A stretch of 64,000 bases of DNA from Escherichia coli O157:H7. Lineage in GTDB: Bacteria > Pseudomonadota > Gammaproteobacteria > Enterobacterales > Enterobacteriaceae. Made by a program: the position numbers and the translations under genes. Of this stretch, positions 3,401 through 29,664 are shown piece by piece. Positions within the stretch are counted from its first letter, which is position 1. Every line of letters starts with the position of its first letter. The notes under the pieces were generated by a model. The model made no database searches. It saw only the letters and a program-made list of their open reading frames with translations, and was not told where the DNA came from. The DNA is taken from the NCBI RefSeq assembly GCF_013167455.1, contig NZ_CP038328.1. The stretch is one strand, 5' to 3'.

Positions 3401-3404
3401 TGAT

Positions 3405-3545: not shown

Positions 3546-3549
3546 CAGT

Positions 3550-4939: not shown

Positions 4940-5192
4940 CTGGCAAGTTTGCAGCCTGGTTGTGCAGGCCAAAAGCGAACGAATTTCAGACATCAGCACC
5001 CAACTGAACGCCTTTCCCGGCTGTGAAGTTGCTGTCAGCGACGCGCCGAGCGGTCAGTTGATTGTGGTGGTGGAAGCAGAAGACAGCGAAACGCTGATCC
5101 AAACCATTGAGTCAGTACGCAACGTAGAGGGCGTGCTGGCGGTGTCGCTGGTTTATCACCAGCAGGAAGAGCAAGGTGAGGAAACACCATGA
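4929..5192 (+). CDS. napD: NapA chaperone NapD
   Basis: 87-aa ORF overlapping napF end and napA start. Confidence 0.9.
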
Positions 5193-7675: not shown

Positions 7676-7681
7676 GCCATT

Positions 7682-9227: not shown

Positions 9228-9673
9228 AAAGCCATGACCTGAAGAAAGCGCTGTGTCAATGGACGGCGATGCTGGCCCTGGTGGTAAGCGGCGCGGTTTG
9301 GGCGGCTAATGGCGTCGATTTTAGCCAGTCGCCGGAAGTATCCGGGACGCAGGAAGGGGCCATTCGGATGCCAAAAGAGCAGGATCGGATGCCGCTGAAC
9401 TATGTGAATCAGCCGCCAATGATCCCGCATAGCGTTGAAGGTTATCAGGTAACGACCAATACCAACCGCTGCTTGCAGTGCCACGGTGTCGAAAGCTATC
9501 GCACCACTGGCGCGCCGCGTATCAGTCCTACTCACTTTATGGACAGCGACGGCAAAGTGGGCGCGGAAGTGGCTCCGCGTCGTTATTTCTGTCTGCAATG
9601 TCACGTACCGCAGGCCGATACCGCGCCAATCGTGGGGAATACCTTTACCCCATCAAAAGGTTACGGGAAATAA
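9224..9673 (+). CDS. napB: Dihaem cytochrome c NapB
   Basis: Starts MKSHDLKK (internal Met of the track ORF); two CxxCH haem motifs. Confidence 0.85.
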   Translation: MKSHDLKKALCQWTAMLALVVSGAVWAANGVDFSQSPEVSGTQEGAIRMPKEQDRMPLNYVNQPPMIPHSVEGYQVTTNTNRCLQCHGVESYRTTGAPRISPTHFMDSDGKVGAEVAPRRYFCLQCHVPQADTAPIVGNTFTPSKGYGK

Positions 9674-9682
9674 GAGGTTATT

Positions 9683-10285
9683 ATGGGAAATTCTGACCGT
9701 AAGCCTGGTCTGATTAAGCGCCTGTGGAAATGGTGGCGTACCCCCAGCCGTCTGGCGCTGGGGACGCTGCTGTTGATCGGTTTTGTCGGCGGCATCGTCT
9801 TCTGGGGCGGCTTTAACACTGGGATGGAAAAAGCCAATACCGAAGAGTTCTGCATTAGCTGCCACGAAATGCGTAACACGGTGTATCAGGAATACATGGA
9901 TTCCGTGCACTACAACAACCGTAGCGGCGTCCGTGCGACCTGTCCGGATTGTCACGTTCCGCACGAGTTTGTGCCGAAGATGATACGCAAGCTCAAAGCA
10001 AGTAAAGAGCTGTATGGTAAAATTTTTGGCGTTATTGACACGCCGCAGAAATTTGAAGCTCATCGTCTGACGATGGCACAGAATGAGTGGCGGCGCATGA
10101 AGGACAATAACTCGCAGGAGTGCCGTAACTGTCACAACTTCGAGTATATGGATACAACCGCCCAGAAATCGGTTGCCGCGAAGATGCATGACCAGGCGGT
10201 GAAAGATGGGCAAACCTGTATTGATTGCCATAAAGGGATAGCGCACAAGCTGCCCGATATGCGTGAAGTCGAGCCAGGTTTTTAA
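9683..10285 (+). CDS. napC: Tetrahaem cytochrome c NapC (NapC/NirT family)
   Basis: 200-aa ORF; four CxxCH motifs; N-terminal membrane anchor. Confidence 0.9.
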   Translation: MGNSDRKPGLIKRLWKWWRTPSRLALGTLLLIGFVGGIVFWGGFNTGMEKANTEEFCISCHEMRNTVYQEYMDSVHYNNRSGVRATCPDCHVPHEFVPKMIRKLKASKELYGKIFGVIDTPQKFEAHRLTMAQNEWRRMKDNNSQECRNCHNFEYMDTTAQKSVAAKMHDQAVKDGQTCIDCHKGIAHKLPDMREVEPGF

Positions 10286-10297
10286 CAGGGTTATTGC

Positions 10298-10921
10298 GTG
10301 GGTATGCTTGAAGTCAGAGAGTTACTTTGTGAGCGGGATGAACGAACCTTATTTAGTGGCTTGTCATTTACGCTGAACGCAGGAGAGTGGGTACAAATCA
10401 CCGGTAGCAACGGCGCGGGGAAGACAACGCTTCTCCGTTTGCTGACGGGGTTGTCTCGCCCTGACGCAGGCGAGGTTCTCTGGCAAGGGCAGCCCTTGCA
10501 TCAGGTACGCGACAGCTACCATCAAAACCTGTTATGGATAGGCCATCAGCCGGGGATCAAAACCCGGCTGACGGCGTTAGAAAATCTGCACTTTTATCAT
10601 CGCGATGGCGATACCGCACAATGTCTGGAAGCCCTGGCGCAGGCCGGGCTTGCCGGATTCGAAGATATTCCGGTAAATCAACTTTCTGCCGGGCAACAAC
10701 GCCGCGTCGCTTTAGCGCGTCTGTGGCTGACCCGTGCCACGTTATGGATCCTCGACGAGCCTTTTACCGCGATTGACGTTAACGGCGTCGATCGTCTGAC
10801 CCAGCGTATGGCGCAGCATACAGAGCAGGGGGGGATTGTGATTCTCACTACCCACCAGCCGCTCAACGTTGCTGAAAGTAAAATTCGCCGCATTTCACTG
10901 ACGCAAACGAGGGCCGTATGA
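10298..10921 (+). CDS. ccmA: Haem exporter ATPase CcmA
   Basis: 207-aa ABC ATPase; Walker [10 protein letters not shown]. Confidence 0.9.
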
Positions 10922-11580
10922 TGTTCTGGCGCATTTTCCGTCTTGAGCTGCGCGTAGCGTTTCGCCATAGCGCTGAAATCGCCAACCCGCTGTGGTTCTT
11001 CCTGATTGTAATTACCCTTTTTCCGCTCAGTATCGGTCCGGAGCCGCAACTGCTGGCACGTATTGCACCGGGCATTATCTGGGTTGCCGCGCTGCTTTCA
11101 TCCTTGCTGGCGCTGGAACGACTGTTCCGTGACGATTTGCAGGACGGCAGTCTTGAACAATTGATGTTGTTGCCGTTACCCTTGCCCGCCGTTGTGCTGG
11201 CGAAGGTGATGGCGCACTGGATGGTAACCGGTCTGCCGTTACTCATCCTTTCGCCACTGGTAGCAATGCTACTGGGAATGGATGTTTATGGCTGGCAAGT
11301 GATGGCGTTAACGCTACTGCTGGGAACGCCTACGCTTGGCTTTCTCGGTGCACCGGGCGTGGCGCTGACAGTGGGACTTAAGCGCGGTGGTGTGCTGCTC
11401 AGCATACTGGTGTTACCGCTGACTATCCCATTACTCATCTTTGCCACCGCCGCGATGGACGCGGCTTCTATGCATTTGCCCGTTGACGGGTATCTGGCAA
11501 TTTTAGGCGCGTTGCTGGCAGGCACCGCGACATTAAGTCCTTTTGCGACGGCGGCAGCGTTACGAATCAGCATTCAATAA
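10918..11580 (+). CDS. ccmB: Haem exporter permease CcmB
   Basis: 220-aa polytopic membrane protein; overlaps ccmA stop. Confidence 0.9.
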
Positions 11581-11621
11581 CGCTGGATTACTGATTTTTG
11601 TTCGAGTCTGGTATCGAAACT

Positions 11622-12359
11622 ATGTGGAAAACACTGCATCAACTGGCGATCCCACCACGGCTGTATCAAATCTGTGGCTGGTTTATACCGTGGCTGGCAA
11701 TTGCCAGTGTAGTCGTGCTTACCGTCGGCTGGATCTGGGGATTCGGCTTTGCTCCGGCTGATTATCAGCAGGGAAATAGCTACCGCATTATCTACCTGCA
11801 TGTGCCTGCGGCGATCTGGTCGATGGGCATTTATGCATCAATGGCGGTGGCGGCGTTTATTGGCCTTGTCTGGCAGATGAAAATGGCCAACCTGGCGGTG
11901 GCGGCGATGGCCCCCATTGGTGCCGTGTTTACCTTTATTGCCCTGGTTACCGGCTCTGCATGGGGAAAACCGATGTGGGGCACCTGGTGGGTATGGGATG
12001 CACGTCTGACTTCTGAACTGGTGCTGCTGTTTTTGTATGTGGGTGTGATTGCCCTGTGGCACGCCTTCGACGACCGCCGTCTGGCGGGCCGTGCGGCAGG
12101 TATCCTGGTGCTGATTGGCGTGGTGAATCTGCCGATTATTCATTACTCCGTGGAGTGGTGGAACACCCTGCATCAGGGATCAACGCGGATGCAGCAAAGT
12201 ATCGATCCGGCGATGCGTTCGCCGCTGCGCTGGTCGATTTTTGGCTTCCTGCTCCTCTCTGCCACGCTGACGCTGATGCGGATGCGTAATTTGATTTTGC
12301 TGATGGAAAAACGCCGTCCGTGGGTGAGTGAACTGATACTGAAAAGAGGCCGTAAATGA
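11622..12359 (+). CDS. ccmC: Haem lyase / haem exporter subunit CcmC
   Basis: Starts MWKTLHQLAIPP (internal Met of track ORF); WGxxWxWD tryptophan-rich motif. Confidence 0.85.
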   Translation: MWKTLHQLAIPPRLYQICGWFIPWLAIASVVVLTVGWIWGFGFAPADYQQGNSYRIIYLHVPAAIWSMGIYASMAVAAFIGLVWQMKMANLAVAAMAPIGAVFTFIALVTGSAWGKPMWGTWWVWDARLTSELVLLFLYVGVIALWHAFDDRRLAGRAAGILVLIGVVNLPIIHYSVEWWNTLHQGSTRMQQSIDPAMRSPLRWSIFGFLLLSATLTLMRMRNLILLMEKRRPWVSELILKRGRK

Positions 12360-12565
12360 CCCCTGCATTTGCTTCCTGGAATGAATTTTTCGCAATGGGC
12401 GGTTACGCCTTTTTTGTCTGGCTGGCGGTGGTGATGACCGTTATTCCGCTGGTGGTTTTGGTCGTGCACTCGGTGATGCAGCATCGCGCAATTCTGCGTG
12501 GTGTGGCGCAACAGCGGGCGCGTGAGGCGCGTTTACGTGCTGCGCAACAGCAGGAGGCTGCATGA
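12356..12565 (+). CDS. ccmD: CcmD
   Basis: 69-aa small membrane protein in ccm operon position. Confidence 0.85.
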
Positions 12566-13041
12566 ATATTCGCCGTAAAAACCGCTTGTGGATTGCCTGT
12601 GCCGTGTTGGCAGGGCTGGCGCTGACTATCGGTCTGGTGCTATATGCGCTGCGCTCGAATATCGATCTCTTTTATACGCCGGGGGAAATTCTCTACGGCA
12701 AGCGTGAAACTCAGCAGATGCCGGAAGTCGGTCAGCGTCTGCGCGTTGGCGGGATGGTGATGCCGGGTAGTGTGCAGCGCGATCCCAATTCGCTGAAAGT
12801 GACCTTCACCATTTACGACGCTGAAGGCTCAGTGGATGTCTCTTATGAAGGCATTTTGCCGGATCTGTTCCGTGAAGGGCAGGGCGTTGTGGTGCAGGGC
12901 GAGCTGGAAAAAGGCAATCATATCCTCGCAAAAGAAGTGCTGGCGAAACATGATGAAAACTACACGCCGCCAGAAGTTGAGAAAGCGATGGAAGCTAACC
13001 ACCGTCGCCCGGCGAGTGTTTATAAGGACCCAGCATCATGA
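12562..13041 (+). CDS. ccmE: Haem chaperone CcmE
   Basis: 159-aa ORF; operon position. Confidence 0.9.
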
Positions 13042-14981
13042 TGCCGGAAATTGGTAACGGGCTGCTGTGCCTGGCGCTGGGAATTGCGCTGCTGCTGTCC
13101 GTGTATCCGCTATGGGGCGTGGCGCGCGGAGATGCGCGCATGATGGCGTCTTCCCGCTTGTTTGCCTGGCTGCTGTTTATGTCTGTGGCTGGCGCATTTC
13201 TGGTGCTGGTCAATGCTTTCGTGGTCAACGACTTTACCGTCACCTATGTTGCCAGCAACTCCAATACCCAGCTTCCGGTGTGGTATCGCGTGGCGGCTAC
13301 CTGGGGCGCACATGAAGGCTCACTGCTGCTGTGGGTGCTGCTGATGAGCGGCTGGACCTTTGCGGTGGCGATTTTTAGTCAGCGTATTCCGCTGGATATT
13401 GTGGCCCGCGTACTGGCGATAATGGGGATGGTCAGTGTCGGCTTTTTGCTGTTCATTCTCTTTACCTCTAACCCATTCTCACGCACGCTGCCGAACTTCC
13501 CGATTGAAGGGCGCGATCTTAACCCGCTGTTACAGGATCCGGGGCTGATCTTCCATCCGCCTCTGCTTTATATGGGGTACGTGGGTTTCTCGGTGGCGTT
13601 TGCTTTTGCCATTGCTTCTTTGCTGAGCGGGCGTCTGGACAGCACTTATGCGCGTTTTACTCGTCCGTGGACGCTGGCAGCGTGGATCTTCCTGACGCTC
13701 GGCATCGTGCTCGGTTCCGCATGGGCCTATTACGAACTCGGCTGGGGTGGCTGGTGGTTCTGGGATCCGGTAGAAAACGCCTCGTTTATGCCGTGGCTGG
13801 TGGGGACTGCGCTGATGCACTCACTGGCGGTCACTGAACAACGCGCCAGCTTCAAAGCGTGGACATTACTGCTGGCAATCAGTGCCTTCTCGTTGTGTCT
13901 GTTGGGGACTTTCCTCGTGCGTTCCGGCGTGCTGGTATCGGTACACGCGTTTGCGTCTGATCCGGCGCGCGGTATGTTTATCCTCGCCTTTATGGTGCTG
14001 GTGATTGGCGGTTCGCTGCTGCTGTTTGCCGCGCGTGGACACAAAGTTCGCTCACGCGTAAACAATGCGCTGTGGTCGCGGGAATCTTTGCTGTTAGCGA
14101 ACAACGTTTTGCTGGTCGCCGCGATGCTGGTGGTGTTGCTGGGGACGCTGCTGCCGCTGGTGCACAAGCAACTGGGACTGGGCAGTATTTCGATTGGCGA
14201 ACCGTTCTTCAACACCATGTTTACCTGGCTGATGGTGCCGTTTGCGCTACTGCTGGGTGTCGGTCCTCTGGTGCGCTGGGGGCGCGATCGCCCACGTAAA
14301 ATCCGCAATTTATTGATTATCGCCTTCATCTCTACGCTGGTGCTGTCTCTGCTGTTGCCGTGGCTGTTCGAAAGCAAAGTTGTGGCGATGACGGTGCTCG
14401 GCCTGGCAATGGCCTGCTGGATTGCGGTGCTGGCAATTGCGGAAGCTGCGCTACGTATTTCACGCGGCACGAAAACCACCTTCAGTTATTGGGGGATGGT
14501 GGCGGCTCACCTGGGGCTGGCAGTGACAATTGTTGGCATTGCCTTTAGCCAGAACTATAGCGTTGAGCGTGATGTGCGCATGAAGTCCGGCGATAGCGTC
14601 GATATTCATGAATATCGCTTCACCTTCCGTGATGTCAAAGAGGTGACTGGCCCGAACTGGCGTGGCGGTGTGGCGACTATCGGCGTAACGCGAGAGGGTA
14701 AACCGGAAACGGTGCTGTATGCGGAAAAACGTTATTACAACACTGCCGGGTCGATGATGACCGAAGCGGCAATTGACGGCGGCATCACGCGTGACCTGTA
14801 CGCCGCGCTCGGTGAAGAGCTGGAAAACGGCGCGTGGGCTGTGCGTCTTTACTACAAACCATTTGTTCGCTGGATTTGGGCGGGCGGGCTGATGATGGCG
14901 TTGGGCGGACTGCTGTGTCTGTTTGATCCTCGCTATCGTAAGCGCGTGAGCCCGCAAAAAACTGCGCCGGAGGCTGTATGA
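13038..14981 (+). CDS. ccmF: Cytochrome c-type biogenesis protein CcmF
   Basis: 647-aa polytopic membrane protein; W-rich motif. Confidence 0.9.
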
Positions 14982-15535
14982 AGCGCAAAGTATTGTTAAT
15001 TCCGTTGATTATCTTCCTGGCGATTGCCGCGGCGCTGCTGTGGCAGCTGGCGCGTAATGCCGAAGGGGATGATCCGACCAATCTGGAATCGGCGCTCATT
15101 GGCAAGCCTGTGCCGAAGTTTCGTCTCGAATCACTGGACAATCCGGGGCAGTTTTATCAGGCGGATGTGCTGACTCAGGGCAAACCAGTGCTGCTTAACG
15201 TCTGGGCGACCTGGTGTCCGACCTGCCGTGCGGAACATCAATATCTGAATCAGCTTTCTGCGCAGGGCATCCGCGTGGTCGGCATGAACTATAAAGACGA
15301 TCGCCAGAAGGCAATCAGCTGGCTGAAAGAGCTGGGCAATCCTTACGCGCTAAGCCTTTTTGATGGCGATGGCATGTTAGGGCTGGATCTCGGTGTCTAT
15401 GGCGCGCCAGAAACGTTTCTTATTGACGGCAACGGCATCATTCGCTATCGCCATGCGGGCGATCTCAATCCTCGCGTCTGGGAAGAAGAGATCAAGCCGC
15501 TGTGGGAGAAATACAGTAAGGAGGCCGCACAATGA
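14978..15535 (+). CDS. ccmG: Thiol:disulfide interchange protein CcmG/DsbE
   Basis: 185-aa ORF; thioredoxin WCPTC motif. Confidence 0.9.
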   Translation: MKRKVLLIPLIIFLAIAAALLWQLARNAEGDDPTNLESALIGKPVPKFRLESLDNPGQFYQADVLTQGKPVLLNVWATWCPTCRAEHQYLNQLSAQGIRVVGMNYKDDRQKAISWLKELGNPYALSLFDGDGMLGLDLGVYGAPETFLIDGNGIIRYRHAGDLNPRVWEEEIKPLWEKYSKEAAQ

Positions 15536-16584
15536 GGTTTTTATTGGGCGTGCTGATGCTGATGATCTCCGGCTCAGCGCTGGCGACCATCGACGTGTTG
15601 CAGTTTAAAGATGAAGCACAGGAACAACAGTTCCGTCAGCTCACTGAAGAACTGCGCTGCCCGAAATGCCAGAATAACAGCATTGCCGATTCCAACTCGA
15701 TGATTGCCACCGACCTGCGCCAGAAAGTGTATGAACTGATGCAGGAAGGCAAAAGTAAGAAAGAGATTGTCGATTATATGGTGGCGCGTTACGGCAACTT
15801 CGTCACTTACGATCCGCCGTTAACGCCGCTGACCGTGCTGCTGTGGGTGCTTCCGGTAGTGGCTATTGGTATTGGCGGTTGGGTCATATACGCCCGTTCG
15901 CGGCGTCGGGTACGCGTGGTACCGGAAGCGTTTCCTGAACAAAGCGTGCCGGAAGGTAAGCGTGCCGGATATGTTGTTTATCTGCCGGGTATTGTGGTGG
16001 CGTTAATTGTGGCTGGCGTCAGCTACTACCAGACTGGCAATTATCAGCAGGTGAAAATCTGGCAGCAGGCCACGGCACAGGCTCCGGCGTTGCTGGACAG
16101 GGCGCTGGATCCGAAAGCCGATCCGCTCAACGAAGAAGAGATGTCGCGCCTTGCGCTGGGGATGCGTACTCAACTGCAAAAAAATCCGGGAGATATAGAA
16201 GGTTGGATTATGTTGGGTCGCGTTGGCATGGCGCTGGGTAACGCCAGTATCGCCACCGATGCATACGCTACTGCGTATCGCCTCGATCCGAAAAACAGCG
16301 ATGCCACACTGGGTTATGCTGAAGCGTTGACACGTTCATCTGATCCCAACGACAACCGCCTCGGCGGCGAACTGCTGCGCCAGTTGGTGAGAACGGACCA
16401 TAGCAATATTCGTGTGTTAAGCATGTATGCGTTTAATGCCTTTGAGCAGCAGCGATTTGGCGAAGCCGTTGCCGCGTGGGAGATGATGTTGAAACTCTTA
16501 CCTGCCAACGATACTCGCCGTGCGGTGATTGAACGTAGTATCGCGCAGGCGATGCAACATTTGTCGCCGCAGGAGAGTAAATAA
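15532..16584 (+). CDS. ccmH: Cytochrome c maturation protein CcmH
   Basis: 350-aa ORF; CPKC motif; TPR-like C-terminal half. Confidence 0.9.
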   Translation: MRFLLGVLMLMISGSALATIDVLQFKDEAQEQQFRQLTEELRCPKCQNNSIADSNSMIATDLRQKVYELMQEGKSKKEIVDYMVARYGNFVTYDPPLTPLTVLLWVLPVVAIGIGGWVIYARSRRRVRVVPEAFPEQSVPEGKRAGYVVYLPGIVVALIVAGVSYYQTGNYQQVKIWQQATAQAPALLDRALDPKADPLNEEEMSRLALGMRTQLQKNPGDIEGWIMLGRVGMALGNASIATDAYATAYRLDPKNSDATLGYAEALTRSSDPNDNRLGGELLRQLVRTDHSNIRVLSMYAFNAFEQQRFGEAVAAWEMMLKLLPANDTRRAVIERSIAQAMQHLSPQESK

Positions 16585-16589
16585 AAAGA

Positions 16590-16620
16590 GGCCCGATGGT
16601 GATGCCATCGGGCTATTTTT
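16590..16620. terminator. Bidirectional intrinsic terminator between convergent ccmH and narP
   Basis: Hairpin GCCCGATGG-tgatg-CCATCGGGC followed by TATTTTTA. Confidence 0.7.
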
Positions 16621-17266
16621 ATTGTGCCCCGCGTTGTTGCAGGAACAGAATGGTGGCTGCCACGCGTGAGCGGACATTGAGTTTGCGCAGTAGATTGCGA
16701 ATATGTACTTTTACTGTCTGCTCGGAAATATTCAACACCGAGGCAATCTGTTTATTTGACAGCCCCTGTGCCAGCTCGTGCAGAACATCCAGCTCGCGCT
16801 CCGTCAGCACGCTGAAGGGATCTTCTTCCGCGCCAAACATTTCACGTTCATGTAAGTACTGATTGACGCGTTCGCTAAAGACTTTGCTGCCTTTCGCTCC
16901 GGCACGAATCGCTTCCAGCAACACTTCCGGGTCGCTGTCTTTCAACAGATAACCGTCTGCGCCTGCGTCTATCAGTGCAAAGACATCGCTGGAGGCATCT
17001 GATACGGTCAGGATAATAATTTGCGCGGTAACGCCATCCCTGCGCAAGGCATTGAGGGTATCCAGGCCACTCATACCTTTCATATTGAGATCCAGCAAGA
17101 TCACGTCGATATCCAGTCTATTCGCCAGATCGATAGCACTCGCGCCGTCGCCCGCTTCGGCGACCACTTCAAAGCCAGGATCAAGCTCCAGTAACTGACG
17201 AACACCGCGTCGCATAAGTGGATGATCATCCACAATCATCACCTGAAAAGGCGTTGCTTCAGGCAT
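16619..17266 (-). CDS. narP: Nitrate/nitrite response regulator NarP
   Basis: Starts MPEATPFQVMIVDDHP; receiver domain plus LuxR-type HTH. Confidence 0.9.
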   Translation of the reverse strand: MPEATPFQVMIVDDHPLMRRGVRQLLELDPGFEVVAEAGDGASAIDLANRLDIDVILLDLNMKGMSGLDTLNALRRDGVTAQIIILTVSDASSDVFALIDAGADGYLLKDSDPEVLLEAIRAGAKGSKVFSERVNQYLHEREMFGAEEDPFSVLTERELDVLHELAQGLSNKQIASVLNISEQTVKVHIRNLLRKLNVRSRVAATILFLQQRGAQ

Positions 17267-17585
17267 AGTAGTCTCCTGAGGTTTTATTAGAATCATTATG
17301 TTTGAGCGTAGCGTTGGTAACGCTACCAGGCGCGTGAATGTTACCCCATTTTATGTATGGACATGTAGCGAAAACTACAACCTTGTCGTTCGCTTTGGCA
17401 TCATTTTCATTATAAAGACGGAATTTTGCATCAGCTTCTCATCAAGAAAAACAACTAAAAAATCAATCACAATACTTGTGCATTTCTTTAAACAGTTTTT
17501 AAAAACTGACTCCGGGTATGGAGCTATGGGTATTTTCTGTACCCAATGCTTTTAACTGCAATTAATTTCATAGGATGAAAGCTCA

Positions 17586-20177
17586 ATGCATCAATCTGGT
17601 TCTGTTTCTCTTTGTCGTTCCGCAATATCTGTTCTGGTAGCTACAGCGTTATATTCACCCATAGCATTGGCATCAACAGTTGAGTATGGTGAGACAGTTG
17701 ATGGTGTTGTCCTGGAAAAAGATATCCAGCTGGTTTATGGGACCGCCAATAATACGAAAATCAATCCTGGCGGAGAACAGCATATTAAAGAATTTGGTAT
17801 AAGTAGTAATACTGAAATTAACGGCGGGTATCAGTACATTGAAATGAATGGCACCGCAGAATACTCAGTATTAAATGATGGTTATCAAATTGTTCAAATG
17901 GGTGGCGCGGCAAACCAGACTACGCTCAATAATGGTGTGCTACAGGTTTATGGCGCAGCGAATGATCCCACGATTAAAGGCGGGCGCTTAATCGTTGAAA
18001 AAGATGGGATTACCGTCCTTGCCGCTATCGAAAAGGGAGGATTACTGGAGGTTAAAGAGGGGGGATTAGCGATTGCGGTAGATCAGAAAGCAGGCGGTGC
18101 TATTAAAGCAAGCACGCGGGTCATGGAGGTATTCGGAACAAACCGTCTCGGTCAGTTCGAAATCAAGAATGGTATTGCTAACAATATGCTGTTGGAAAAC
18201 GGCGGAAGTTTGCGAGTTGAAGAAAATGACTTCGCTTATAATACTACTGTAGATAGTGGCGGCTTACTGGAGGTTATGGATGGCGGGACTGCAACTGGCG
18301 TTGATAAAAAAGCAGGCGGAAAATTAATTGTCTCAACGAATGCGCTGGAAGTGAGTGGTACAAACAGTAAAGGCCAATTTAGTATAAAAGATGGTGTGTC
18401 AAAAAATTATGAACTGGATGATGGTTCCGGGCTTATTGTTATGGAGGACACGCAGGCCATTGACACTATCCTCGATGAGCATGCCACTATGCAATCGCTG
18501 GGAAAGGATACTGGTACGAGAGTGCAGGCAAATGCGGTATATGATCTCGGTCGATCAGATCAGAATGGAAGTATAACGTATTCCTCTAAAGCCATCTCTG
18601 AAAATATGGTTATCAACAATGGCCGCGCTAACGTCTGGGCTGGCACAATGGTTAACGTGTCAGTCAGAGGAAATGATGGCATTCTTGAGGTTATGAAGCC
18701 GCAAATAAATTATGCACCCGCAATGTTGGTGGGTAAGGTAGTGGTTTCTGAGGGCGCTTCTTTAAGAACGCATGGTGCCGTGGATACCAGCAAAGCGGAT
18801 GTTTCGCTCGAAAATAGCGCATGGACCATCATTGCCGATATCACTACGACGAACCAAAACACCCGCCTTAACTTAGCCAACCTTGCGATGTCTGGCGCAA
18901 ATGTGATTATGATGGATGAGTCAGTGACTCGTTCATCTGTGACGGCAAGTGCGGAAAATTTCACTACGTTGACCACCAATACCCTGTCGGGAAACGGCAA
19001 TTTTTATATGCGTACCGATATGGCGAATCATCAGAGCGATCAGCTCAACGTCACCGGTCAGGCAACAGGTGATTTCAAAATATTCGTGACGGACACCGGT
19101 GCCAGCCCGGCAGCAGGAGATAGCCTTACACTGGTAACAACGGGCGGCGGTGATGCTGCATTTACGTTGGGCAATGCCGGAGGCGTTGTTGATATCGGTA
19201 CGTATGAATATACCTTGCTGGATAATGGTAACCATAGCTGGAGTCTGGCAGAGAATCGCGCGCAAATTACCCCTTCAACCACTGATGTGCTGAATATGGC
19301 GGCCGCACAACCGCTGGTATTTGATGCAGAACTGGACACCGTGCGTGAGCGTCTTGGTAGCGTAAAAGGCGTTAGTTACGATACGGCGATGTGGAGTTCG
19401 GCAATTAACACCCGCAACAACGTGACCACTGATGCGGGAGCTGGTTTTGAGCAAACATTGACGGGCCTGACGCTCGGTATCGATAGCCGTTTCTCCCGTG
19501 AAGAAAGCAGCACAATTCGCGGCTTGTTCTTTGGTTACTCTCATTCTGATATTGGTTTTGATCGCGGCGGCAAAGGCAATGTCGATAGCTATACCCTGGG
19601 GGCTTATGCCGGTTGGGAGCATCAGAACGGTGCCTATGTTGATGGAGTGGTGAAAGTTGACCGTTTTGCCAACACCATCCATGGCAAGATGAGTAATGGG
19701 GCAACAGCGTTTGGCGATTACAATAGTAACGGCGCGGGTGCTCATGTCGAGAGCGGGTTCCGTTGGGTTGACGGATTGTGGAGTGTTAGACCCTATCTGG
19801 CCTTTACCGGCTTTACCACAGATGGTCAGGACTACACGTTATCAAACGGCATGCGCGCGGATGTGGGAAATACCCGGATATTACGCGCTGAAGCGGGAAC
19901 GGCGGTAAGCTATCACATGGACCTGCAAAACGGTACGACGCTGGAACCCTGGCTGAAAGCCGCCGTGCGTCAGGAATACGCCGATTCTAACCAGGTGAAA
20001 GTTAATGACGATGGCAAATTTAATAATGATGTGGCTGGAACCCGTGGCGTTTATCAGGCTGGGATAAGGTCATCGTTTACCCCGACGTTAAGCGGTCATT
20101 TGTCAGTCAGCTATGGCAATGGCGCAGGGGTAGAATCGCCGTGGAATACCCAGGCGGGTGTGGTCTGGACGTTCTGA
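17586..20177 (+). CDS. yejO: Autotransporter adhesin-like protein YejO (intact)
   Basis: 863-aa ORF; signal peptide, repetitive beta-helix-like passenger, C-terminal beta-barrel ending in WTF. Confidence 0.8.
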   Translation: MHQSGSVSLCRSAISVLVATALYSPIALASTVEYGETVDGVVLEKDIQLVYGTANNTKINPGGEQHIKEFGISSNTEINGGYQYIEMNGTAEYSVLNDGYQIVQMGGAANQTTLNNGVLQVYGAANDPTIKGGRLIVEKDGITVLAAIEKGGLLEVKEGGLAIAVDQKAGGAIKASTRVMEVFGTNRLGQFEIKNGIANNMLLENGGSLRVEENDFAYNTTVDSGGLLEVMDGGTATGVDKKAGGKLIVSTNALEVSGTNSKGQFSIKDGVSKNYELDDGSGLIVMEDTQAIDTILDEHATMQSLGKDTGTRVQANAVYDLGRSDQNGSITYSSKAISENMVINNGRANVWAGTMVNVSVRGNDGILEVMKPQINYAPAMLVGKVVVSEGASLRTHGAVDTSKADVSLENSAWTIIADITTTNQNTRLNLANLAMSGANVIMMDESVTRSSVTASAENFTTLTTNTLSGNGNFYMRTDMANHQSDQLNVTGQATGDFKIFVTDTGASPAAGDSLTLVTTGGGDAAFTLGNAGGVVDIGTYEYTLLDNGNHSWSLAENRAQITPSTTDVLNMAAAQPLVFDAELDTVRERLGSVKGVSYDTAMWSSAINTRNNVTTDAGAGFEQTLTGLTLGIDSRFSREESSTIRGLFFGYSHSDIGFDRGGKGNVDSYTLGAYAGWEHQNGAYVDGVVKVDRFANTIHGKMSNGATAFGDYNSNGAGAHVESGFRWVDGLWSVRPYLAFTGFTTDGQDYTLSNGMRADVGNTRILRAEAGTAVSYHMDLQNGTTLEPWLKAAVRQEYADSNQVKVNDDGKFNNDVAGTRGVYQAGIRSSFTPTLSGHLSVSYGNGAGVESPWNTQAGVVWTF

Positions 20178-20237: not shown

Positions 20238-20270
20238 TAAAAAAACCAACCTTTACGGTTGGTTTTTTTG
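20238..20270 (+). terminator. Intrinsic terminator after yejO
   Basis: aaaaaACCAACC-ttta-CGGTTGGttttttt. Confidence 0.7.
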
Positions 20271-20275
20271 GGATT

Positions 20276-20292
20276 TTTGGTCGGCACGAGAG
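20276..20292. repeat. attL: 17-bp direct repeat TTTGGTCGGCACGAGAG, a copy of the tRNA-Pro 3' end
   Basis: Identical 17-mer at 29850-29866 overlapping the tRNA-Pro 3' end. Confidence 0.85.
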
Positions 20293-20353
20293 TAGTTTAA
20301 TTGAGTATGTAACTACATGATTTTAAATAATATGCTTGATTCAACTTTTAAAC

Positions 20354-20377
20354 CGTATAACTAAACGTATAACTAAA
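20354..20377 (+). repeat. Two tandem CGTATAACTAAA motifs at left end (candidate integrase arm-type sites)
   Basis: Same 12-mer present four times near the right end (29665-29720). Confidence 0.5.
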
Positions 20378-20559
20378 ATCATTTGCTGAAAAAGTGTACA
20401 ATTTAAATGCGAGTTTTCCTGTGGTAAAAGCTCCAACCGTAACGATGTTCGTTATGGTTGCCTTGATGGTCTGCGTGGTCATTATGACCATTCAGGATTT
20501 GAAGGGTGACGCTTCCGACTTCCTCAAATTGAGGTTTCCGAAAATATCAGCGGGTTAGG

Positions 20560-23699: not shown

Positions 23700-23935
23700 A
23701 CCCTTCACCTGTTCACCTTTTGATATTTTATCTTTTAATTCATAATGTTAAGGGGTGAACAGTTTCACAAAAACTATTCACCAACTATTCACCACTGTTC
23801 ACCCTTGAAGCTCAATAAACAATCAAAAAGGTGAACAGTGAATAGTTTGGTGAACAGTTCATAAATAACTGTTCACCCTATAATATACTGATATAAAAGA
23901 TATTTATGACAGGGTGAACAGTGGTGAACAGTTAT
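23700..23935. repeat. Iteron array (GGTGAACAG / CTGTTCACC, with CTATTCACC variants) and AT-rich tracts: putative island replication origin
   Basis: At least 8 perfect 9-mers in both orientations plus variants, immediately 3' of the primase-helicase gene. Confidence 0.75.
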
Positions 23936-23944
23936 TCCATAAGT

Positions 23945-25762
23945 TTAATTTTTGCTATCGTCATTAGTGACCGATACACATGACGGCATCCAGTCTTCTG
24001 ATTCCTCCGTCAGTGTCACGTTTGAACGCAAACCGTGCTTCGTTTTCCGTTTCATATACTCCCTGCCATATTCCGCCATTGCCCCCGGCATATCTTTACC
24101 GAAGCGCGTCAGTGTTACAGGTTTACCGAATCCGTGTGCCCTCATATATGCCAGATAGGCGTGATAAAGATACCTGCGCGGACTGAACGGAATAATTTCG
24201 GCATTACCCACTAACAGACCATCACACATTACCGACGACATGAGATAGCCGCAGAAGTCCACCAGCGAATCGCCCTCGCGTTTTATCACCAGAGCTTCTT
24301 CTGATTTCTGCTGCTCATACAGCAGGCGTTTAGCTTCGTCCTGGTCAGAAAAACGAGTAAGCAGGTGGCGAATCACAACCGCCAGCTCTCCTTCTATTTT
24401 TTCTGCCAGCATGGGGTCGCGTTCGTTTTCCGGTACAACCTCCGAAAAATTGAATATCACCCGACGACGTGAAATCCCCCCGCTGCGGTCACTGAATGAC
24501 ATGGCGTTATTGTTCACCGCCAACACTACCGCCTGAATGCGTGTTGAGTAGGGGGCTTTATGCTTCGGGTCGATTGCCACCTTGTCACCGCCTGTAATGG
24601 CCTTAATTCCTGCGCCATCACCAGCGTAACGGGTCATATCCGGCATGATAATCAGCGAAAAGCCAACCACTAACGCGCGTTCCCTGGCATCTTCCAGCGC
24701 CTTCATGCTTGCCGATACCGTGTTGGCCTTACCCGCCAGCATGGTGCAAATCTCCGCCATCACGCTTTTACCACTTCCCCCTGGACCTGTTACCTCAATG
24801 AATAACTGCCAGTCGTACCGGTTCGCCAGCACCATGAATAATGCAGCCAGTACGCGATCCGCCTTGCGGTCATTCTCAGCCACCGAACGGCGTAACCACT
24901 TCCAGAAATTCGGCGCATGTGTTGCCAGCGTTTCCCCCTCTGCTGGTGGGCTGAAAGGTAATTCACTGGCAATTAACAACCAGTCGTTTTTGTTATGCTC
25001 CCGAAAATCGCCTGTCCGGGTATCAAAAACACCGTTACTGAATCCAATCAGGTTACGGGCTGTATTCCCCATTACAGGCAAACTTAACTTCATGGTATCG
25101 ACCGCCGATTTAATGGCGTTCTGCGAATAGCTGATCTCCGCATCAATGAAAATCTGTGCCATAGCTCGCTGTAATTCTTTATCCTGTACTGGCTCCCATA
25201 CAACGCCGTTGTAATAGTGAACAGTGTCAGAGTCAGCATGAATCGCCAGTTCACCGCCATAATGTGCCAGGAGAACTTCGCCGCGTTGACTTGCTCCCAT
25301 CTGGTTAAGCGCCAGTGATGAAGCGTTATCGTCTTTTACCCGCTCTTTTTTCTTTACAGGCAGTTCAACTACCTTTTTCTTTTCCGCCTGCTCTGCCCGT
25401 TCACGTTCCAGATATTCGCGCCAGTTCTCCCGTTTCTGGCTGTGCATTCCTTCAGGGTAATAATCAGCATCCCTGACACCTGCCGCTGCCAGTTTCTGCC
25501 CGATGGTATTAACAAGCCCCGAACGCAATAACCCCGCCTGATAGAGACGCACGCGATAGCGTCCGTCCGGTACGATTTGCAGGTTGTCCAGTTCGGCAAG
25601 TTGTTGCTCTCCAAGCCAGACAGGTGGCACGTTATCGCCAGCCAGTCGCCCGTCCTGTTCCTGCCACTGCTTCGCATGTGCCCACGCATCACTACCCGCA
25701 AAAATGATGACTTCCGTCATTTTGTCACGTGGCTGGTGTTTTAAATTTGGCGCTTTTTTCAT
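23945..25762 (-). CDS. Replication initiator primase-helicase (P4 alpha / D5-like)
   Basis: ~605 aa; Walker A VTGPGGSGKS in C-terminal half; N-terminal region consistent with a primase-type domain; ATGA start/stop overlap with upstream ORF. Confidence 0.8.
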   Translation of the reverse strand: MKKAPNLKHQPRDKMTEVIIFAGSDAWAHAKQWQEQDGRLAGDNVPPVWLGEQQLAELDNLQIVPDGRYRVRLYQAGLLRSGLVNTIGQKLAAAGVRDADYYPEGMHSQKRENWREYLERERAEQAEKKKVVELPVKKKERVKDDNASSLALNQMGASQRGEVLLAHYGGELAIHADSDTVHYYNGVVWEPVQDKELQRAMAQIFIDAEISYSQNAIKSAVDTMKLSLPVMGNTARNLIGFSNGVFDTRTGDFREHNKNDWLLIASELPFSPPAEGETLATHAPNFWKWLRRSVAENDRKADRVLAALFMVLANRYDWQLFIEVTGPGGSGKSVMAEICTMLAGKANTVSASMKALEDARERALVVGFSLIIMPDMTRYAGDGAGIKAITGGDKVAIDPKHKAPYSTRIQAVVLAVNNNAMSFSDRSGGISRRRVIFNFSEVVPENERDPMLAEKIEGELAVVIRHLLTRFSDQDEAKRLLYEQQKSEEALVIKREGDSLVDFCGYLMSSVMCDGLLVGNAEIIPFSPRRYLYHAYLAYMRAHGFGKPVTLTRFGKDMPGAMAEYGREYMKRKTKHGLRSNVTLTEESEDWMPSCVSVTNDDSKN

Positions 25763-26058
25763 TTCTGCTCTCTCCACGCGGCAATCATGTTTTTCAGTTC
25801 CTGTAGTTTTTTATCAACATCCATACATGGCACATGGTTATTTCTGGAAGGCGGGATTTCCCGCCTGAATCTGCTAATAAAGATCTCCACGTTCAGCGAA
25901 CTATGAAATGAATAGCCATCACGAATAAAATACACACGGTCAAACATCAGTTCTTTTACCGTTACTCTGTTACCGTTCTTATCCAGATAAATAGCGCCGG
26001 GGATAATTTTTGGGTGTGCATAACCGCTGGCAGTCAAGCCAGATAAATATGTTCTCAT
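25759..26058 (-). CDS. Hypothetical protein (99 aa), translationally coupled to primase
   Basis: ORF with RBS; its stop overlaps the primase start (ATGA). Confidence 0.5.
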   Translation of the reverse strand: MRTYLSGLTASGYAHPKIIPGAIYLDKNGNRVTVKELMFDRVYFIRDGYSFHSSLNVEIFISRFRREIPPSRNNHVPCMDVDKKLQELKNMIAAWREQK

Positions 26059-26064
26059 GATTAT

Positions 26065-26385
26065 TTATCCCCGATTTGAATCAGTATTCGCTTTCTTTAT
26101 GGCATTTAATGCATCTGTGGCATTTTCAATGGTGCACCGTAACGAAATATTAAACTGTCCAAGCATTGCCAGTAACAAACCGATATTACCCATATCAATG
26201 CGCATGACCTTTTCGTCATAGTCCTCATTTTCTGACGCATGCCACATCAGGCTACCAATTGACGCAACAGCCATTGATATATTGTCAGTAGCCCCATCCG
26301 CAGCGGAATAAACCTTTTTAGCAATATCATGCTCACAGTTAAAATGCGGATTAATCAGGTACTGGTAATTTGACATATCAGGCAT
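26065..26385 (-). CDS. Hypothetical protein (106 aa, starts MPDMSNYQY)
   Basis: Start overlaps upstream stop (ATGCCTGA); track ORF N-terminal extension rejected. Confidence 0.5.
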   Translation of the reverse strand: MPDMSNYQYLINPHFNCEHDIAKKVYSAADGATDNISMAVASIGSLMWHASENEDYDEKVMRIDMGNIGLLLAMLGQFNISLRCTIENATDALNAIKKANTDSNRG

Positions 26386-26935
26386 GGCACACCCCCTGAC
26401 GAATACGGGCGGCGAATACAGCAACACAACCGGACGGGCAACGGCTACGCGCTTCGCGTTCCGTCCAGGCGGTTACGTGGATGATTTGATGTTCTGACGC
26501 GCCAAAGATGATAAAGCGCCAGAGAAAGGCGGTTTGAGAATGTACAAGGGTAGGGATAGTAGCCATGTTGGCAGCCTCCTCAGTGTGGTTAAGATAACCG
26601 CCACCGGAAACGCCAATTTCGCTGGTGGCGGACTGTACAGGGTTGGCGTAACCGGACACTGAAGAAACCGGCGCGGATTGCTCCGCCCCCGTACAGCCCA
26701 CCATTGATAAGGTGTGACTATGCGGCACAAAAAAACACGCGGGGCGCGTGTTATGCGCTTCAGTTTTGCCCAGGACGCCAATCCCGGCACCCGTTTTATG
26801 AGGTGCGCGGGAATCATAGCTATTTTCGACACTGGCGATCAACTGGTTTTTTTCTCCGATATTCAGGGCCAGAAAACGCCACACAAAGGCCGTTTGTGTG
26901 TGTACAAGGTGTGGTATATGATTTACGGCAACCAT
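26378..26935 (-). CDS. Hypothetical protein with internal tandem duplication (possible Ash/Icd-like small-protein family); may be one 185-aa ORF or two in-frame cistrons
   Basis: AGGAG RBS before ATG at 26935; motif IPxLVHxQTAFxWRF occurs twice (N-terminus and at the internal Met at 26566, preceded by GAGGAGG); family name is an unverified recollection. Confidence 0.45.
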   Translation of the reverse strand: MVAVNHIPHLVHTQTAFVWRFLALNIGEKNQLIASVENSYDSRAPHKTGAGIGVLGKTEAHNTRPACFFVPHSHTLSMVGCTGAEQSAPVSSVSGYANPVQSATSEIGVSGGGYLNHTEEAANMATIPTLVHSQTAFLWRFIIFGASEHQIIHVTAWTEREARSRCPSGCVAVFAARIRQGVCHA

Positions 26936-26966
26936 AACGGCTCCTAGTTTACGTTGTTGGTTAGAA

Positions 26967-27008
26967 GCCCTGCGAGTGGTAACGACACTTGCGGGGCTTT
27001 GTCTTTTC
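26967..27008 (+). terminator. Plus-strand-specific terminator-like hairpin within the 5' leader region of the minus-strand replication operon
   Basis: 12-bp stem GCCCTGCGAGTG/CACTTGCGGGGC; both mismatches are G-U wobbles only in the plus-strand RNA; followed by TTTGTCTTTTC. Confidence 0.45.
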
Positions 27009-27026
27009 ATCGATTACCTTGATAAA

Positions 27027-27688: not shown

Positions 27689-27895
27689 TTAAGCAGCCGT
27701 TCCGCGTGCTTCCTCTTCGCGTTCTTTCTGCCAGGACAACACATCATCCTCATACCATCCGCGACGGCGTAAACCAACGCGAAAACCCTGCGGAAATTCT
27801 CCGGCGTTGATCATGCTTTGCAGCGTGCTGTCTGCCTTGATGTGGATAATTTTTTTTACTTCCTGGCGAAAGATAATTTTTCTGATTGCTTCCAT
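27689..27895 (-). CDS. alpA: AlpA-family phage regulatory protein / excisionase-like HTH
   Basis: 68-aa ORF; motif STLQSMINAGEFPQGFRVGLRRRGWYEDDVLSW resembles AlpA. Confidence 0.75.
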   Translation of the reverse strand: MEAIRKIIFRQEVKKIIHIKADSTLQSMINAGEFPQGFRVGLRRRGWYEDDVLSWQKEREEEARGTAA

Positions 27896-28391: not shown

Positions 28392-29633
28392 CTACACGGC
28401 TCGGATACCCCTTTTACCACTGGCGAGGGTTACGCCCGTCGCCGCGGCCTCGACAAATTCGCCCCACCAGCGCATCAGCACGATGCGTTTTTCTATGTAG
28501 TTGCTCCGGTTGTATGCCCGTCTAACTTCGTTGGTGTCGACGTGGGCAAGTGCCGCCTCTATTACGTCCGGCTCGAATCCTTCCTCGTTCGCTGCTGTGC
28601 TGAATATGGCGCGTAATCCATGAGACACCAGCACGCCAGCGAATCCCATACGCCGCAATGCTGCGTTAGCTGTCTGGCTGTTCATCGGCTGCTGTGGGTC
28701 TTTCAGACTTGGGAAAACGTAATTGCGGTGGTGGCTGATTGGTTTCATGGCCTCCAGCACCGCCATAGCCTGACCGGAAAGCGGGATAACGTGATCCCTG
28801 CGCATCTTCATGCGTCCGGCAGGTATCGTCCATTGCTTCGCGTCCAGGTTGATTTCATCCCACCGCGTTGATGACGCTTCGGCGGGACGGGTTACGGTCA
28901 GTAACTGCCATTCAATCAGTAATCTGGTCTGCCGTTCTGTTGCCGATACTGATAAAGCCTGCATAAGCTCGGGCAGCTGTTCGGGGCGGATTGTTGGCAT
29001 ATGTTTTTTTACAGGTGAGGGAAACGCCTTACGCACATTCATAGCCGGATTGGCATCAATCAGCCCACTGTTGGCGGCGTAATCCATTACCTCATTAACG
29101 CGCTGTAAAACCCGCTTGAGTGTTTCCAGGTTGCCGCGCTCCTTGATGGGGGTAAGCACTTCAACGAACCTTCGGGCGGTGAGGGTATCTATTGGCGTGT
29201 TGCCGATGAACGGGAATACATATTTATCCAGCGAACGCCAGATGTCTTTAATCGTGTTGGGGGCCAGATTCTGGCTGATTTTCACCTGGTACCATGCCGC
29301 CGCCACATTTTCGAACGTGTTCCCTTGTCTTCGGGCCTCTGTCTCTCTTTTTTGCCTCTCGTGGTCCTGCGGGTCAGTTCCGGCACTGATTAACGTCCTG
29401 TACTCGCTACGGCGTTTTCTGGCATCAGCCAGGGAAACATCTTCAAGCGATCCAAAACTCAGCAATATTCTTTTTTTGTCCGATGGTCGGTAGTAGGAAA
29501 ATCTCCAGAGTTTTGATCCAGACGGTTTGACCAGGAGAAAAAGCCCTCCGCCGTCCTGCAGGGTGTACTCCTTTTGCGCTGGTCTGGCTGCTTTGATCTG
29601 CACTGTGGTTAATGGGTGTGTTTTTCTCGCCAT
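28392..29633 (-). CDS. int: Tyrosine recombinase, P4-family integrase
   Basis: ~413 aa from MARKTHPLT; N-terminal DGGGLFLLVKPSGSKLWRF arm-binding-like domain; catalytic HGLR and RAYNRSNY(Y) motifs; adjacent to tRNA. Confidence 0.9.
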   Translation of the reverse strand: MARKTHPLTTVQIKAARPAQKEYTLQDGGGLFLLVKPSGSKLWRFSYYRPSDKKRILLSFGSLEDVSLADARKRRSEYRTLISAGTDPQDHERQKRETEARRQGNTFENVAAAWYQVKISQNLAPNTIKDIWRSLDKYVFPFIGNTPIDTLTARRFVEVLTPIKERGNLETLKRVLQRVNEVMDYAANSGLIDANPAMNVRKAFPSPVKKHMPTIRPEQLPELMQALSVSATERQTRLLIEWQLLTVTRPAEASSTRWDEINLDAKQWTIPAGRMKMRRDHVIPLSGQAMAVLEAMKPISHHRNYVFPSLKDPQQPMNSQTANAALRRMGFAGVLVSHGLRAIFSTAANEEGFEPDVIEAALAHVDTNEVRRAYNRSNYIEKRIVLMRWWGEFVEAAATGVTLASGKRGIRAV

Positions 29634-29664
29634 ATGTCTATGATTCCACACGAAAAAACAGGGT

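Follow-up and report, generated by a model that had tools for sequence, protein, structure and literature searches.

We examined two small genes in a window of 64,000 nucleotides from Escherichia coli O157:H7 (NCBI RefSeq assembly GCF_013167455.1, contig NZ_CP038328.1). These open reading frames (ORFs), which we will call ORF-A and ORF-B, lie just upstream of a replicase gene. They sit in a ~9.6-kb phage satellite, of the type of P4 and the phage-inducible chromosomal islands (PICIs), that is integrated at tRNA-Pro in the E. coli chromosome. An earlier note on this DNA, made from the sequence alone, had placed two translationally coupled ORFs of 106 and 99 amino acids at 25759-26385, and these coordinates and lengths are exact. 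The operon is on the minus strand of the window, and the coordinates and junctions that we report were read off the minus-strand sequence. In the order of transcription, the genes are:

26378..26566, minus strand: Icd-like ORF, 62 amino acids (ATG at 26566, TGA at 26380-26378); matches the NCBIfam family phage_ICD_like (NF033153) with E = 1.8e-16 and 59.9 bits, versus 25
26065..26385, minus strand: ORF-A, 106 amino acids (ATG at 26385-26383, TAA at 26067-26065)
25759..26058, minus strand: ORF-B, 99 amino acids (ATG at 26058-26056, TGA at 25761-25759)
23945..25762, minus strand: replicase (primase-helicase) gene, 605 amino acids (ATG at 25762-25760)

The four genes are chained end to start. The stop codon of the Icd-like ORF and the start codon of ORF-A form the junction ATGCCTGA (an 8-nt overlap), a gap of 6 nt (ATAATC) separates the stop of ORF-A from the start of ORF-B, and the stop of ORF-B lies over the ATG of the replicase gene (a 4-nt overlap, ATGA). 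Purine-rich runs that resemble Shine-Dalgarno sequences (AGGGGG, GGGGA, and GGAGAGAG) are found 5' of every start. Both overlaps were confirmed on the minus strand, and the two ORFs are genuine genes that are chained to the replicase gene, as the earlier note had claimed.

The frames and their junctions are conserved. We compared 78 loci from IMG/VR that contain a close relative of ORF-A, 77 of them with full-length ORF-A. The ATGCCTGA junction is kept in 76 of 77 loci, the TAAATAATCATG junction between ORF-A and ORF-B is kept in 74 of 76, and the ATGA junction between ORF-B and the replicase gene is kept in every case (74/74). ORF-A is always 321 nt and ORF-B is always 300 nt, over 53 and 49 distinct alleles, respectively. 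The pooled pairwise ratio of nonsynonymous to synonymous changes (dN/dS) is 0.35 for ORF-A and 0.43 for ORF-B, versus 0.8-1.8 for the two shifted frames of the same sequences; the alleles are closely related and non-independent, so these figures indicate constraint on the annotated frame, rather than a precise rate.

If ORF-A and ORF-B were functionless, they would be chance or decaying frames, and only their small size and the lack of annotation for ORF-A speak for this. We consider it extremely improbable, and effectively refuted: the lengths and junctions are invariant over 49-53 distinct alleles, dN/dS is far under that of the out-of-frame controls, homologs of ORF-A align without gaps down to 25% identity, and ORF-B has a match in Pfam.

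The element is also very common. A 901-nt region matches 1,308 of 5,426 complete E. coli genomes (about a quarter), and 470 of these match at 80% coverage or above. At the matching loci, RefSeq names ORF-A “hypothetical protein” and ORF-B “DUF4222 domain-containing protein.”

Upstream of the Icd-like ORF, we identified two RNA genes and their likely control sites:

26813..26842, minus strand: sigma-70-like promoter (TTGATC-18-TATGAT), from a consensus scan only; 7 nt 5' of the first base of isrK
26730..26806, minus strand: isrK-type small RNA (sRNA) with an intrinsic terminator (26752-26734, plus a T run); Rfam RF01394, 66 bits versus a gathering threshold of 50
26621..26708, minus strand: C4 antisense RNA, a homolog of C4 from P1 and of the CI RNA from P4; Rfam RF01695, 77.6 bits versus 45, full length
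26570..26585, minus strand: predicted C4 target, ACACUGAGGAGGCUGC, which spans the Shine-Dalgarno sequence of the Icd-like ORF (GAGGAGG) and is complementary to the C4 loop

As read from the sequence, the C4 loop (GCCGGUUUCUUCAGUGU) and the target ACACUGAGGAGGCUGC can form 16 consecutive pairs, of which 4 are G-U. For the whole C4 RNA with the 81-nt leader, the duplex energy is -60.2 kcal/mol, versus -41.0 +/- 5.3 kcal/mol for shuffled sequences (0/1000 reach the observed value). From the isrK terminator (26752-26734) as far as the 3' end of the replicase gene, our consensus scan of the minus strand found no promoter-like or terminator-like site. The sole minus-strand promoter-like site near the operon is the one at 26842-26813, which is the probable start of the early operon.

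This arrangement resembles the immI operon of phage P1, in which C4 masks the ribosome-binding site of icd and the expression of ant depends on the translation of icd. In P1, the cargo of the C4 leader is an antirepressor. The window is like c4-icd-ant operons in having an Icd-like ORF after the C4 RNA, and in that the sequence of the C4 loop complements the ribosome-binding site of this ORF. More broadly, immI from P1 or P7 and isrK-orf45-anrP from Gifsy-1 also have an antisense RNA or sRNA leader and then a short ORF whose translation the coupled downstream gene needs. For Gifsy-1, mutations demonstrated that translational coupling via an AUGA junction is needed (PMC4825925). The cargo differs, however: P1, P7, and Gifsy-1 encode antirepressors of the Ant or AnrP type, while in the window the cargo consists of ORF-A, ORF-B, and the replicase, and an antirepressor domain is absent from all three. 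In particular, searches of Pfam and PHROGs found no ANT, Bro, KilA, or Rha domain in ORF-A or ORF-B. (In a paper about helper-embedded PICIs, “icd” refers to the gene for isocitrate dehydrogenase, which is irrelevant to the Icd-like ORF here.)

By analogy to the immunity systems of P1 (immI), Gifsy-1, and P4, C4 in the quiescent island would block translation of the Icd-like ORF and hence of the genes that are coupled to it. Once the block is lifted, ribosomes that finish icd would re-initiate on ORF-A, then on ORF-B, and then on the replicase gene. The earlier note had proposed that the two ORFs are co-expressed with the replication initiator. Because of the complementarity between the C4 loop and icd, the coupled junctions, and the precedents from P1, Gifsy-1, and P4, it is well supported that ORF-A, ORF-B, and the replicase would be made together once the block on the Icd-like ORF lifts; the lack of an internal promoter-like or terminator-like site is also consistent with this.

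As a side observation, the isrK region (26709-26806, minus strand) contains AACUGAAGCGC, where 7 nt (ACUGAAG) are the same as in the complement of the C4 loop. It could be a second, upstream target of C4 (compare to seqA in P4).

The satellite that carries this operon is bounded as follows:

29852-29928, minus strand: tRNA-Pro(GGG)
29843..29874: tRNA-proximal attachment (att) repeat, at the 3' end of tRNA-Pro(GGG); a direct repeat with 20269-20300 (81% over 32 nt)
20269..20300: distal att repeat, the partner of 29843..29874; bounds the ~9.6-kb island
28392..29651, minus strand: tyrosine integrase ORF; the near-identical island of strain 88-19539 has an integrase annotation
27689..27895, minus strand: AlpA-like helix-turn-helix (HTH) regulator or excisionase; weak match to Pfam Phage_AlpA/HTH_17, and to phrog_2790/66 (“excisionase and transcriptional regulator”)

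The island is flanked by yejO on one side and by tRNA-Pro(GGG) and yejM on the other. Identical 26-nt arm-type repeats lie just inside its two ends (20353-20378 and 29696-29721). Nearly all of its genes are on the minus strand, in the order integrase, a small ORF, the AlpA-like gene, isrK, C4, the Icd-like ORF, ORF-A, ORF-B, the replicase gene, three small ORFs, the small terminase subunit (TerS), another small ORF, and the major capsid protein. Gram-negative PICIs and P4-like elements share this combination of a length of ~10 kb, att sites at a tRNA, int, alpA, a primase, TerS and a capsid gene, and mostly one direction of transcription. To judge by its genes, the layout is that of a Gram-negative PICI with a P4-like regulatory and replication half. 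Thus, the proposal in the earlier note that the two ORFs belong to a satellite is borne out, with int, the AlpA-like gene, the primase, TerS, and the capsid gene all lying inside the att repeats at tRNA-Pro. In Gram-negative PICIs, the genes that separate the immunity RNA from the replicase have received almost no study.

We propose, with a probability of roughly 0.55, that both ORF-A and ORF-B are true accessory genes within a C4-gated early operon of this satellite, with ORF-B being a DNA-binding accessory factor and ORF-A being a protein binder and a candidate for an epsilon-like role. Overall, this is a largely ordinary satellite early operon with one uncharacterized small protein. We will discuss ORF-B first.

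With ORF-B, a known family gains a new member. The earlier note had stated that neither ORF has recognizable motifs. This does not hold for ORF-B, which matches DUF4222 in Pfam (PF13973; E = 7.6e-17, 61.1 bits versus a cutoff of 27, residues 16-67) and phrog_285 in PHROGs, and which is collinear with a characterized protein, RgdR (ECs1581 in the Sakai genome). It does hold for ORF-A, which has no match in Pfam, NCBIfam, or PADLOC. ORF-B and RgdR align over 99/99 residues without gaps (29% identity, E = 6e-12). To be sure that we were comparing to the right protein, we checked that the molecular weight (11,703) and isoelectric point (pI, 10.09) of our RgdR sequence agree with the published values (PMC3378721).

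RgdR is from OI-51/Sp7 of O157:H7, which is the capsid-forming PICI (cf-PICI) EcCIEDL933. It is like ORF-B in its domain, its length of 99 amino acids, and its basic pI (9.7 for ORF-B). RgdR also overlaps the primase gene of Sp7 (ECs1582) by ATGA, just as ORF-B overlaps the replicase gene. Only the first 140 amino acids are common to ECs1582 and the replicase from the window. RgdR is reported to be in all of the E. coli PICIs that were analyzed (PMC6092414). RgdR, the characterized member, is a non-specific DNA-binding protein with pleiotropic effects on transcription: LEE1 and type III secretion are activated, motility is repressed, and Congo-red binding is increased (PMC3378721, PMC10877973). 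Within the family, DNA binding, LEE1 activation, and motility repression are known only for ECs1581 and C1493 (PMC3378721).

Two observations set ORF-B apart from RgdR and weigh against a simple transfer of function. The identity is only 29%, and the RGD tripeptide is absent from residues 20-22 of ORF-B, which has P20-G21-A22 instead. The RGD motif of RgdR has been linked to the activation of the type III secretion system (T3SS) (PMC3378721). From these comparisons, ORF-B is a member of the DUF4222 family in a sister clade to RgdR, rather than a strict ortholog.

Genuine temperate phages carry DUF4222 as well. A tblastn search of ORF-A and ORF-B against 50,697 phage records found no match at E = 0.01, and DUF4222 in phage records was detected only with RgdR or a phage copy as the query. 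In phage SfIV, a Klebsiella phage, and prophage e14 from K-12, a DUF4222 ORF that is missing from the annotation (Pfam E ~1e-19) extends over the first 11 nt of the replication initiator gene. In Serratia and Yersinia phage records, the DUF4222 matches lie over a gene that is annotated as “DNA replication protein O.”

The partner of ORF-B in the window is itself a composite. The replicase has an N-terminal module of 140 amino acids (25343-25762, minus strand) and a helicase and ori-binding body that is similar to the alpha protein of P4 (D5_N, DUF5906, and Pox_D5). The N-terminal 140 amino acids are 69% identical to ECs1582 of Sp7, while the remainder is unrelated to it. Over residues 145-595, the replicase shares 51% identity with the C-terminal portion of P4 alpha; the match covers only the helicase and ori-binding part, and the primase domain of P4 alpha is missing from the window's replicase. 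In 13 related loci, ORF-A, ORF-B, and the 140-aa module are kept while the body of the replicase differs. In two loci (L086 and L087), an ORF-A that is 89% identical is found with an RgdR-type DUF4222 protein and a replicase that is 47% identical. Because of the swapped replicase bodies in the 13 loci and the mixed pairs in these two, we describe the region as a mosaic of small exchangeable modules.

The DUF4222 genes of L086 (734-1030) and L087 are chimeric, with the first 12 residues being of the window's type and the remainder being like RgdR, which shows recombination within the gene. Also, the N-terminal module of the replicase (25343-25762) is mobile, has no Pfam family, belongs to phrog_2850, and is 44% identical to the DUF927 primase in another locus, L008.

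Given that DUF4222 is frequently coupled to unrelated initiators and that RgdR binds DNA, our best guess is that ORF-B has a DNA-binding accessory role at the onset of replication. ORF-B would be made alongside the replication initiator and any effects on the virulence genes of the host would be a by-product. Two observations weigh against this proposal. In mEp460 and in an Stx1a phage, DUF4222 is upstream of isrK-C4 and away from the replication gene. And in distant elements that carry ORF-A, an unrelated family of ~115 amino acids occupies the slot of DUF4222.

An alternative explanation concerns replication control. In the manner of Cnr of P4, ORF-A, ORF-B, or both would serve as regulators of the replication initiator or as its accessory subunits. 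Cnr, which controls the copy number of P4, is encoded between epsilon and alpha. We take orf106 of P4 to be cnr. ORF-B lies in the corresponding position, with a 4-nt overlap onto an alpha-type replicase whose body is 51% identical to P4 alpha. The ATGA coupling of DUF4222 genes to replicase genes in the window, in Sp7, and in 74/74 related loci fits with this explanation, as do the overlaps with the starts of O-like initiator genes in SfIV, the Klebsiella phage, and e14, the matches over “O” genes in Serratia and Yersinia phages, and the DNA binding by RgdR (PMC3378721). In 90% of P4-like elements, the cnr family separates epsilon from alpha (PMC8628076), and ORF-A, ORF-B, and the N-terminal 140 amino acids of the primase stay together as a trio in the 13 loci with differing replicase bodies. 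However, we found no similarity to P4 ORF106/DUF5375: there was no BLASTP alignment of ORF-B to ORF106, and the hhalign probability for the profile of ORF-A was 0.05%, which also weighs against a P4-like role for ORF-A. DUF4222 is away from the replication gene in mEp460-type phages, the N-terminal module of the primase also occurs without DUF4222, and ORF-A's family is found with three unrelated types of replicase, including a case (L094) where a DUF927 primase is the gene directly coupled to the homolog of ORF-A, and DUF4222 is absent. We view a role in replication control as possible but tentative, and on balance unlikely.

Another explanation is that ORF-B is a “moron” that alters the host: it would be an RgdR-type global regulator of type III secretion, motility, and curli, and might antagonize a nucleoid protein such as H-NS, with its place in the operon being incidental. 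The target loci of RgdR are classical H-NS-regulated loci. The phenotypes of RgdR (activation of LEE1, repression of motility, and increased Congo-red binding), along with the lowered colonization after deletion of OI-51, argue for a host-directed function (PMC3378721, PMC10877973), and ORF-B is basic like RgdR. On the other hand, ORF-B is only distantly similar to RgdR and lacks the RGD motif that is tied to its activity, and the phenotypes of RgdR are mainly from expression on plasmids. ORF-B would also be behind the translational block by C4, which probably keeps it silent while the island is at rest. Furthermore, the coupling to replication genes is conserved in phages and satellites of hosts without LEE (the enterocyte effacement locus), which suggests a role in the life cycle of the element. 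We consider the host-directed explanation to be quite doubtful, more so than a role in replication control. The placement of ORF-B in the RgdR family, together with the habitual coupling of DUF4222 genes to initiators, suggests that the virulence phenotypes of RgdR may be side effects of a function in the life cycle.

In contrast to ORF-B, ORF-A belongs to an uncharacterized but ordinary-looking family of small satellite genes. ORF-A is acidic (pI 4.76), and its only match in PHROGs is phrog_15327, an uncharacterized family. It has no match in Pfam or NCBIfam, and the models from PADLOC match neither ORF-A nor ORF-B. An exhaustive profile search of 1.8 billion representative sequences found a family of only 21 proteins. 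The family members of ~100 amino acids align to ORF-A with nearly no gaps, with relatives at 25-40% identity, and share the core SIGSLM(W/F)xAxxxxxY......DMxxIGxLL.

Using AlphaFold2 with an alignment of 15 sequences, ORF-A is predicted to form two long antiparallel helices (residues 19-51 and 58-104), with an average confidence (pLDDT) of 81; with a shallow alignment, the pLDDT was 50. The conserved columns G44, M47, A50, Y56, D64, and G69 flank an acidic turn. ORF-A is thus predicted to be an acidic two-helix hairpin, a non-diagnostic fold with no specific structural relative. Sequence searches of the PDB found no match. The predicted hairpin resembles generic antiparallel coiled-coil hairpins such as WXG100/EsxA, prefoldin, the coiled coil of DksA, and UvsY of T4. 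The fold is similar to that of the WXG100/ESAT-6 family, but the turn of ORF-A is ENEDYD, with no WXG, and there is no match in sequence.

Six distinct elements with ORF-A are satellite-like, with int, an AlpA or HTH gene, small ORFs, a replicase, and a capsid gene, and in all six the homolog of ORF-A lies 0-2 small genes 3' of an Icd-like ORF. Because the family occurs with three unrelated types of replicase (D5_N/P4-like, AAA_25, and DUF927), the role of ORF-A appears to be independent of the type of replicase. In three of these satellites, which carry three different replicases, the homolog of ORF-A is followed by the ~115-aa family mentioned above (L005:6306-6674, L008:6300-6638, and L097:5300-5647). 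Its members are 40-57% identical to each other and contain a sequence, LSTSKAEELAR, that looks like part of an HTH.

The position of ORF-A can be compared to that of epsilon in P4, which is the protein that derepresses the helper. The left operon of P4 contains isrK, the CI (C4) RNA, an Icd-like ORF (E = 1.3e-21; the C-terminal portion of what used to be called the “cI” ORF), epsilon, orf151, orf106, and alpha. P4 and the window are alike in their RNA genes, their Icd-like ORF, the 8-nt start-NN-stop junction that follows it, the alpha-type helicase and ori-binding replicase at the end, and the AlpA/ORF88-type gene upstream. Epsilon starts at GTGCGTAA, which overlaps the stop of the Icd-like ORF in the same register as for ORF-A, and in Sp7 of O157, the Icd-like ORF is followed by the equivalent junction ATGCTTAA. 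ORF-A is therefore like epsilon in being the first gene after the Icd-like ORF, 3' of the C4/CI RNA, with a start/stop overlap (ATGCCTGA versus GTGCGTAA in P4 and ATGCTTAA in Sp7). The elements also differ: epsilon, orf151, and orf106 are unrelated in sequence to ORF-A and ORF-B; the window's replicase has a different 140-aa module instead of the N-terminal primase domain of P4 alpha; and the island has a capsid gene and TerS where P4 has sid, delta, and psu. The other small ORFs of related elements have no similarity to epsilon, ORF151, or ORF106.

This raises the alternative that ORF-A, and perhaps ORF-B, is directed at the helper, as an analog of epsilon that inactivates the helper's repressor or as an interference protein that blocks the helper's reproduction. 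ORF-A is exactly in the slot of epsilon, with its 8-nt overlap and under the control of a C4/CI RNA. Its small size, its acidity, and the conserved tip of its hairpin are what might be expected for an inhibitor that binds another protein, and its dN/dS of 0.35 is fairly relaxed, which is usual for interaction proteins. Also, antirepressors are the cargo of isrK/C4 leaders in Gifsy-1 (PMC4825925) and in mEp460 and Stx1a phages. Yet ORF-A has no homology to epsilon or to any Ant, Bro, or Rha antirepressor domain, and in distant relatives it is not the first gene after icd and coexists with dedicated Bro, Ant, or Rha genes. In PMC10111431 and PMC11773190, Gram-negative PICIs are described as being induced by their helper, and neither paper describes a PICI that induces its helper. 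We judge this explanation to be unlikely, and about as tentative as the one involving replication control.

Several observations also count against an epsilon-like candidate within our preferred explanation. A comparison of ORF-A to P4 epsilon with hhalign gave a probability of 0.1%, and the hidden Markov model (HMM) of the family finds no ORF-A-like ORF in P4. In L008, L094, L097, and L093, icd and the homolog of ORF-A are separated by one or two other small ORFs. A seventh and weakest relative (L096) is beside an Icd-like ORF in the reverse order and in a prophage-like setting. Finally, several of the distant elements with ORF-A also carry Bro, AntA, or Rha-ANT genes. The earlier note had suggested that other satellites hold helper-interference or anti-repressor genes at this position. 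This is correct for the slot of P4 epsilon, but it does not carry over to ORF-A by similarity, and among more distant relatives ORF-A ranks second or third behind icd rather than first.

For ORF-A, we prefer the explanation of a protein-binding accessory gene. Most simply, ORF-A would modulate a factor of the helper or of the host through protein binding, because it is a small acidic hairpin, is independent of the type of replicase, and lies in the epsilon slot of a C4-gated operon. It would act by binding another protein, and the best candidate for its partner would be a regulator from the helper prophage or the host, as for an epsilon-like anti-repressor. Only the position of ORF-A, by analogy to P4, suggests that it may be an anti-repressor. 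If ORF-A were an epsilon-like derepressor, this would change the understanding of how these islands are induced. A more radical idea, which we consider rather improbable, is that ORF-A founds a new class of C4-gated effectors in which the acidic tip (SENEDYD) binds the helper's repressor or another central regulator such as RNA polymerase. If this were true, then E. coli islands of the PICI type could be able to rouse their helper actively, which P4 does through epsilon, but by means of an unrelated protein.

Among the by-products of these comparisons, two are the most useful: P4 and PICIs share an architecture in which icd is coupled to the gene that follows, and lambdoid prophages contain hidden DUF4222 ORFs. 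The hidden ORFs are:

L099:4475-4681, plus strand: e14 (NC_000913.3, ~1203974-1204180)
L089:3438-3659: SfIV
L090:3480-3659: Klebsiella phage ST101-KPC2phi6.3

The DUF4222 ORF of e14 also overlaps the 3' half of ymfM (the “cell division inhibitor” of e14), in another frame. We considered whether YmfM from e14, or gp40 from SfIV, might be the DUF4222 protein, and rejected this because the DUF4222 match is in a different frame from ymfM. Across an overlap of 160 nt, the DNA sequences of SfIV and the Klebsiella phage are 81% identical, and 48/53 residues are identical in the DUF4222 frame versus 27/53 in the ymfM frame, which indicates that the DUF4222 frame is under constraint.

Just 3' of the replicase's stop codon are two iteron-like repeats:

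23848..23942: direct repeat TGGTGAACAGTT..., with copies at 23848-23868 and 23922-23942

Based on their position, these repeats are a candidate for the origin of the island.

We also noticed several ORFs that appear to be spurious. ORFs that match the Ash family in Pfam (PF10554) are translations across the isrK and C4 RNA genes. This includes an “Ash family” ORF of 210 amino acids upstream of ORF-A (26378-27010, minus strand); just the final 62 codons of this frame resemble a genuine gene, which is the Icd-like ORF with its strong ribosome-binding site (GAGGAGG). Similarly, the annotated “antirepressors” of 340-383 amino acids in mEp460 and the Stx1a phage (L091:2373-3524 and L092:2484-3506) merge the DUF4222 ORF, isrK and C4, and a Rha-domain protein. 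We rejected the idea that DUF4222 is the N-terminal domain of these antirepressors, since DUF4222 is encoded by a small ORF of its own, read in a different frame. The Rha-domain protein in these phages probably starts with MATIPTL, and the Icd-like ORF of the window opens with the same residues.

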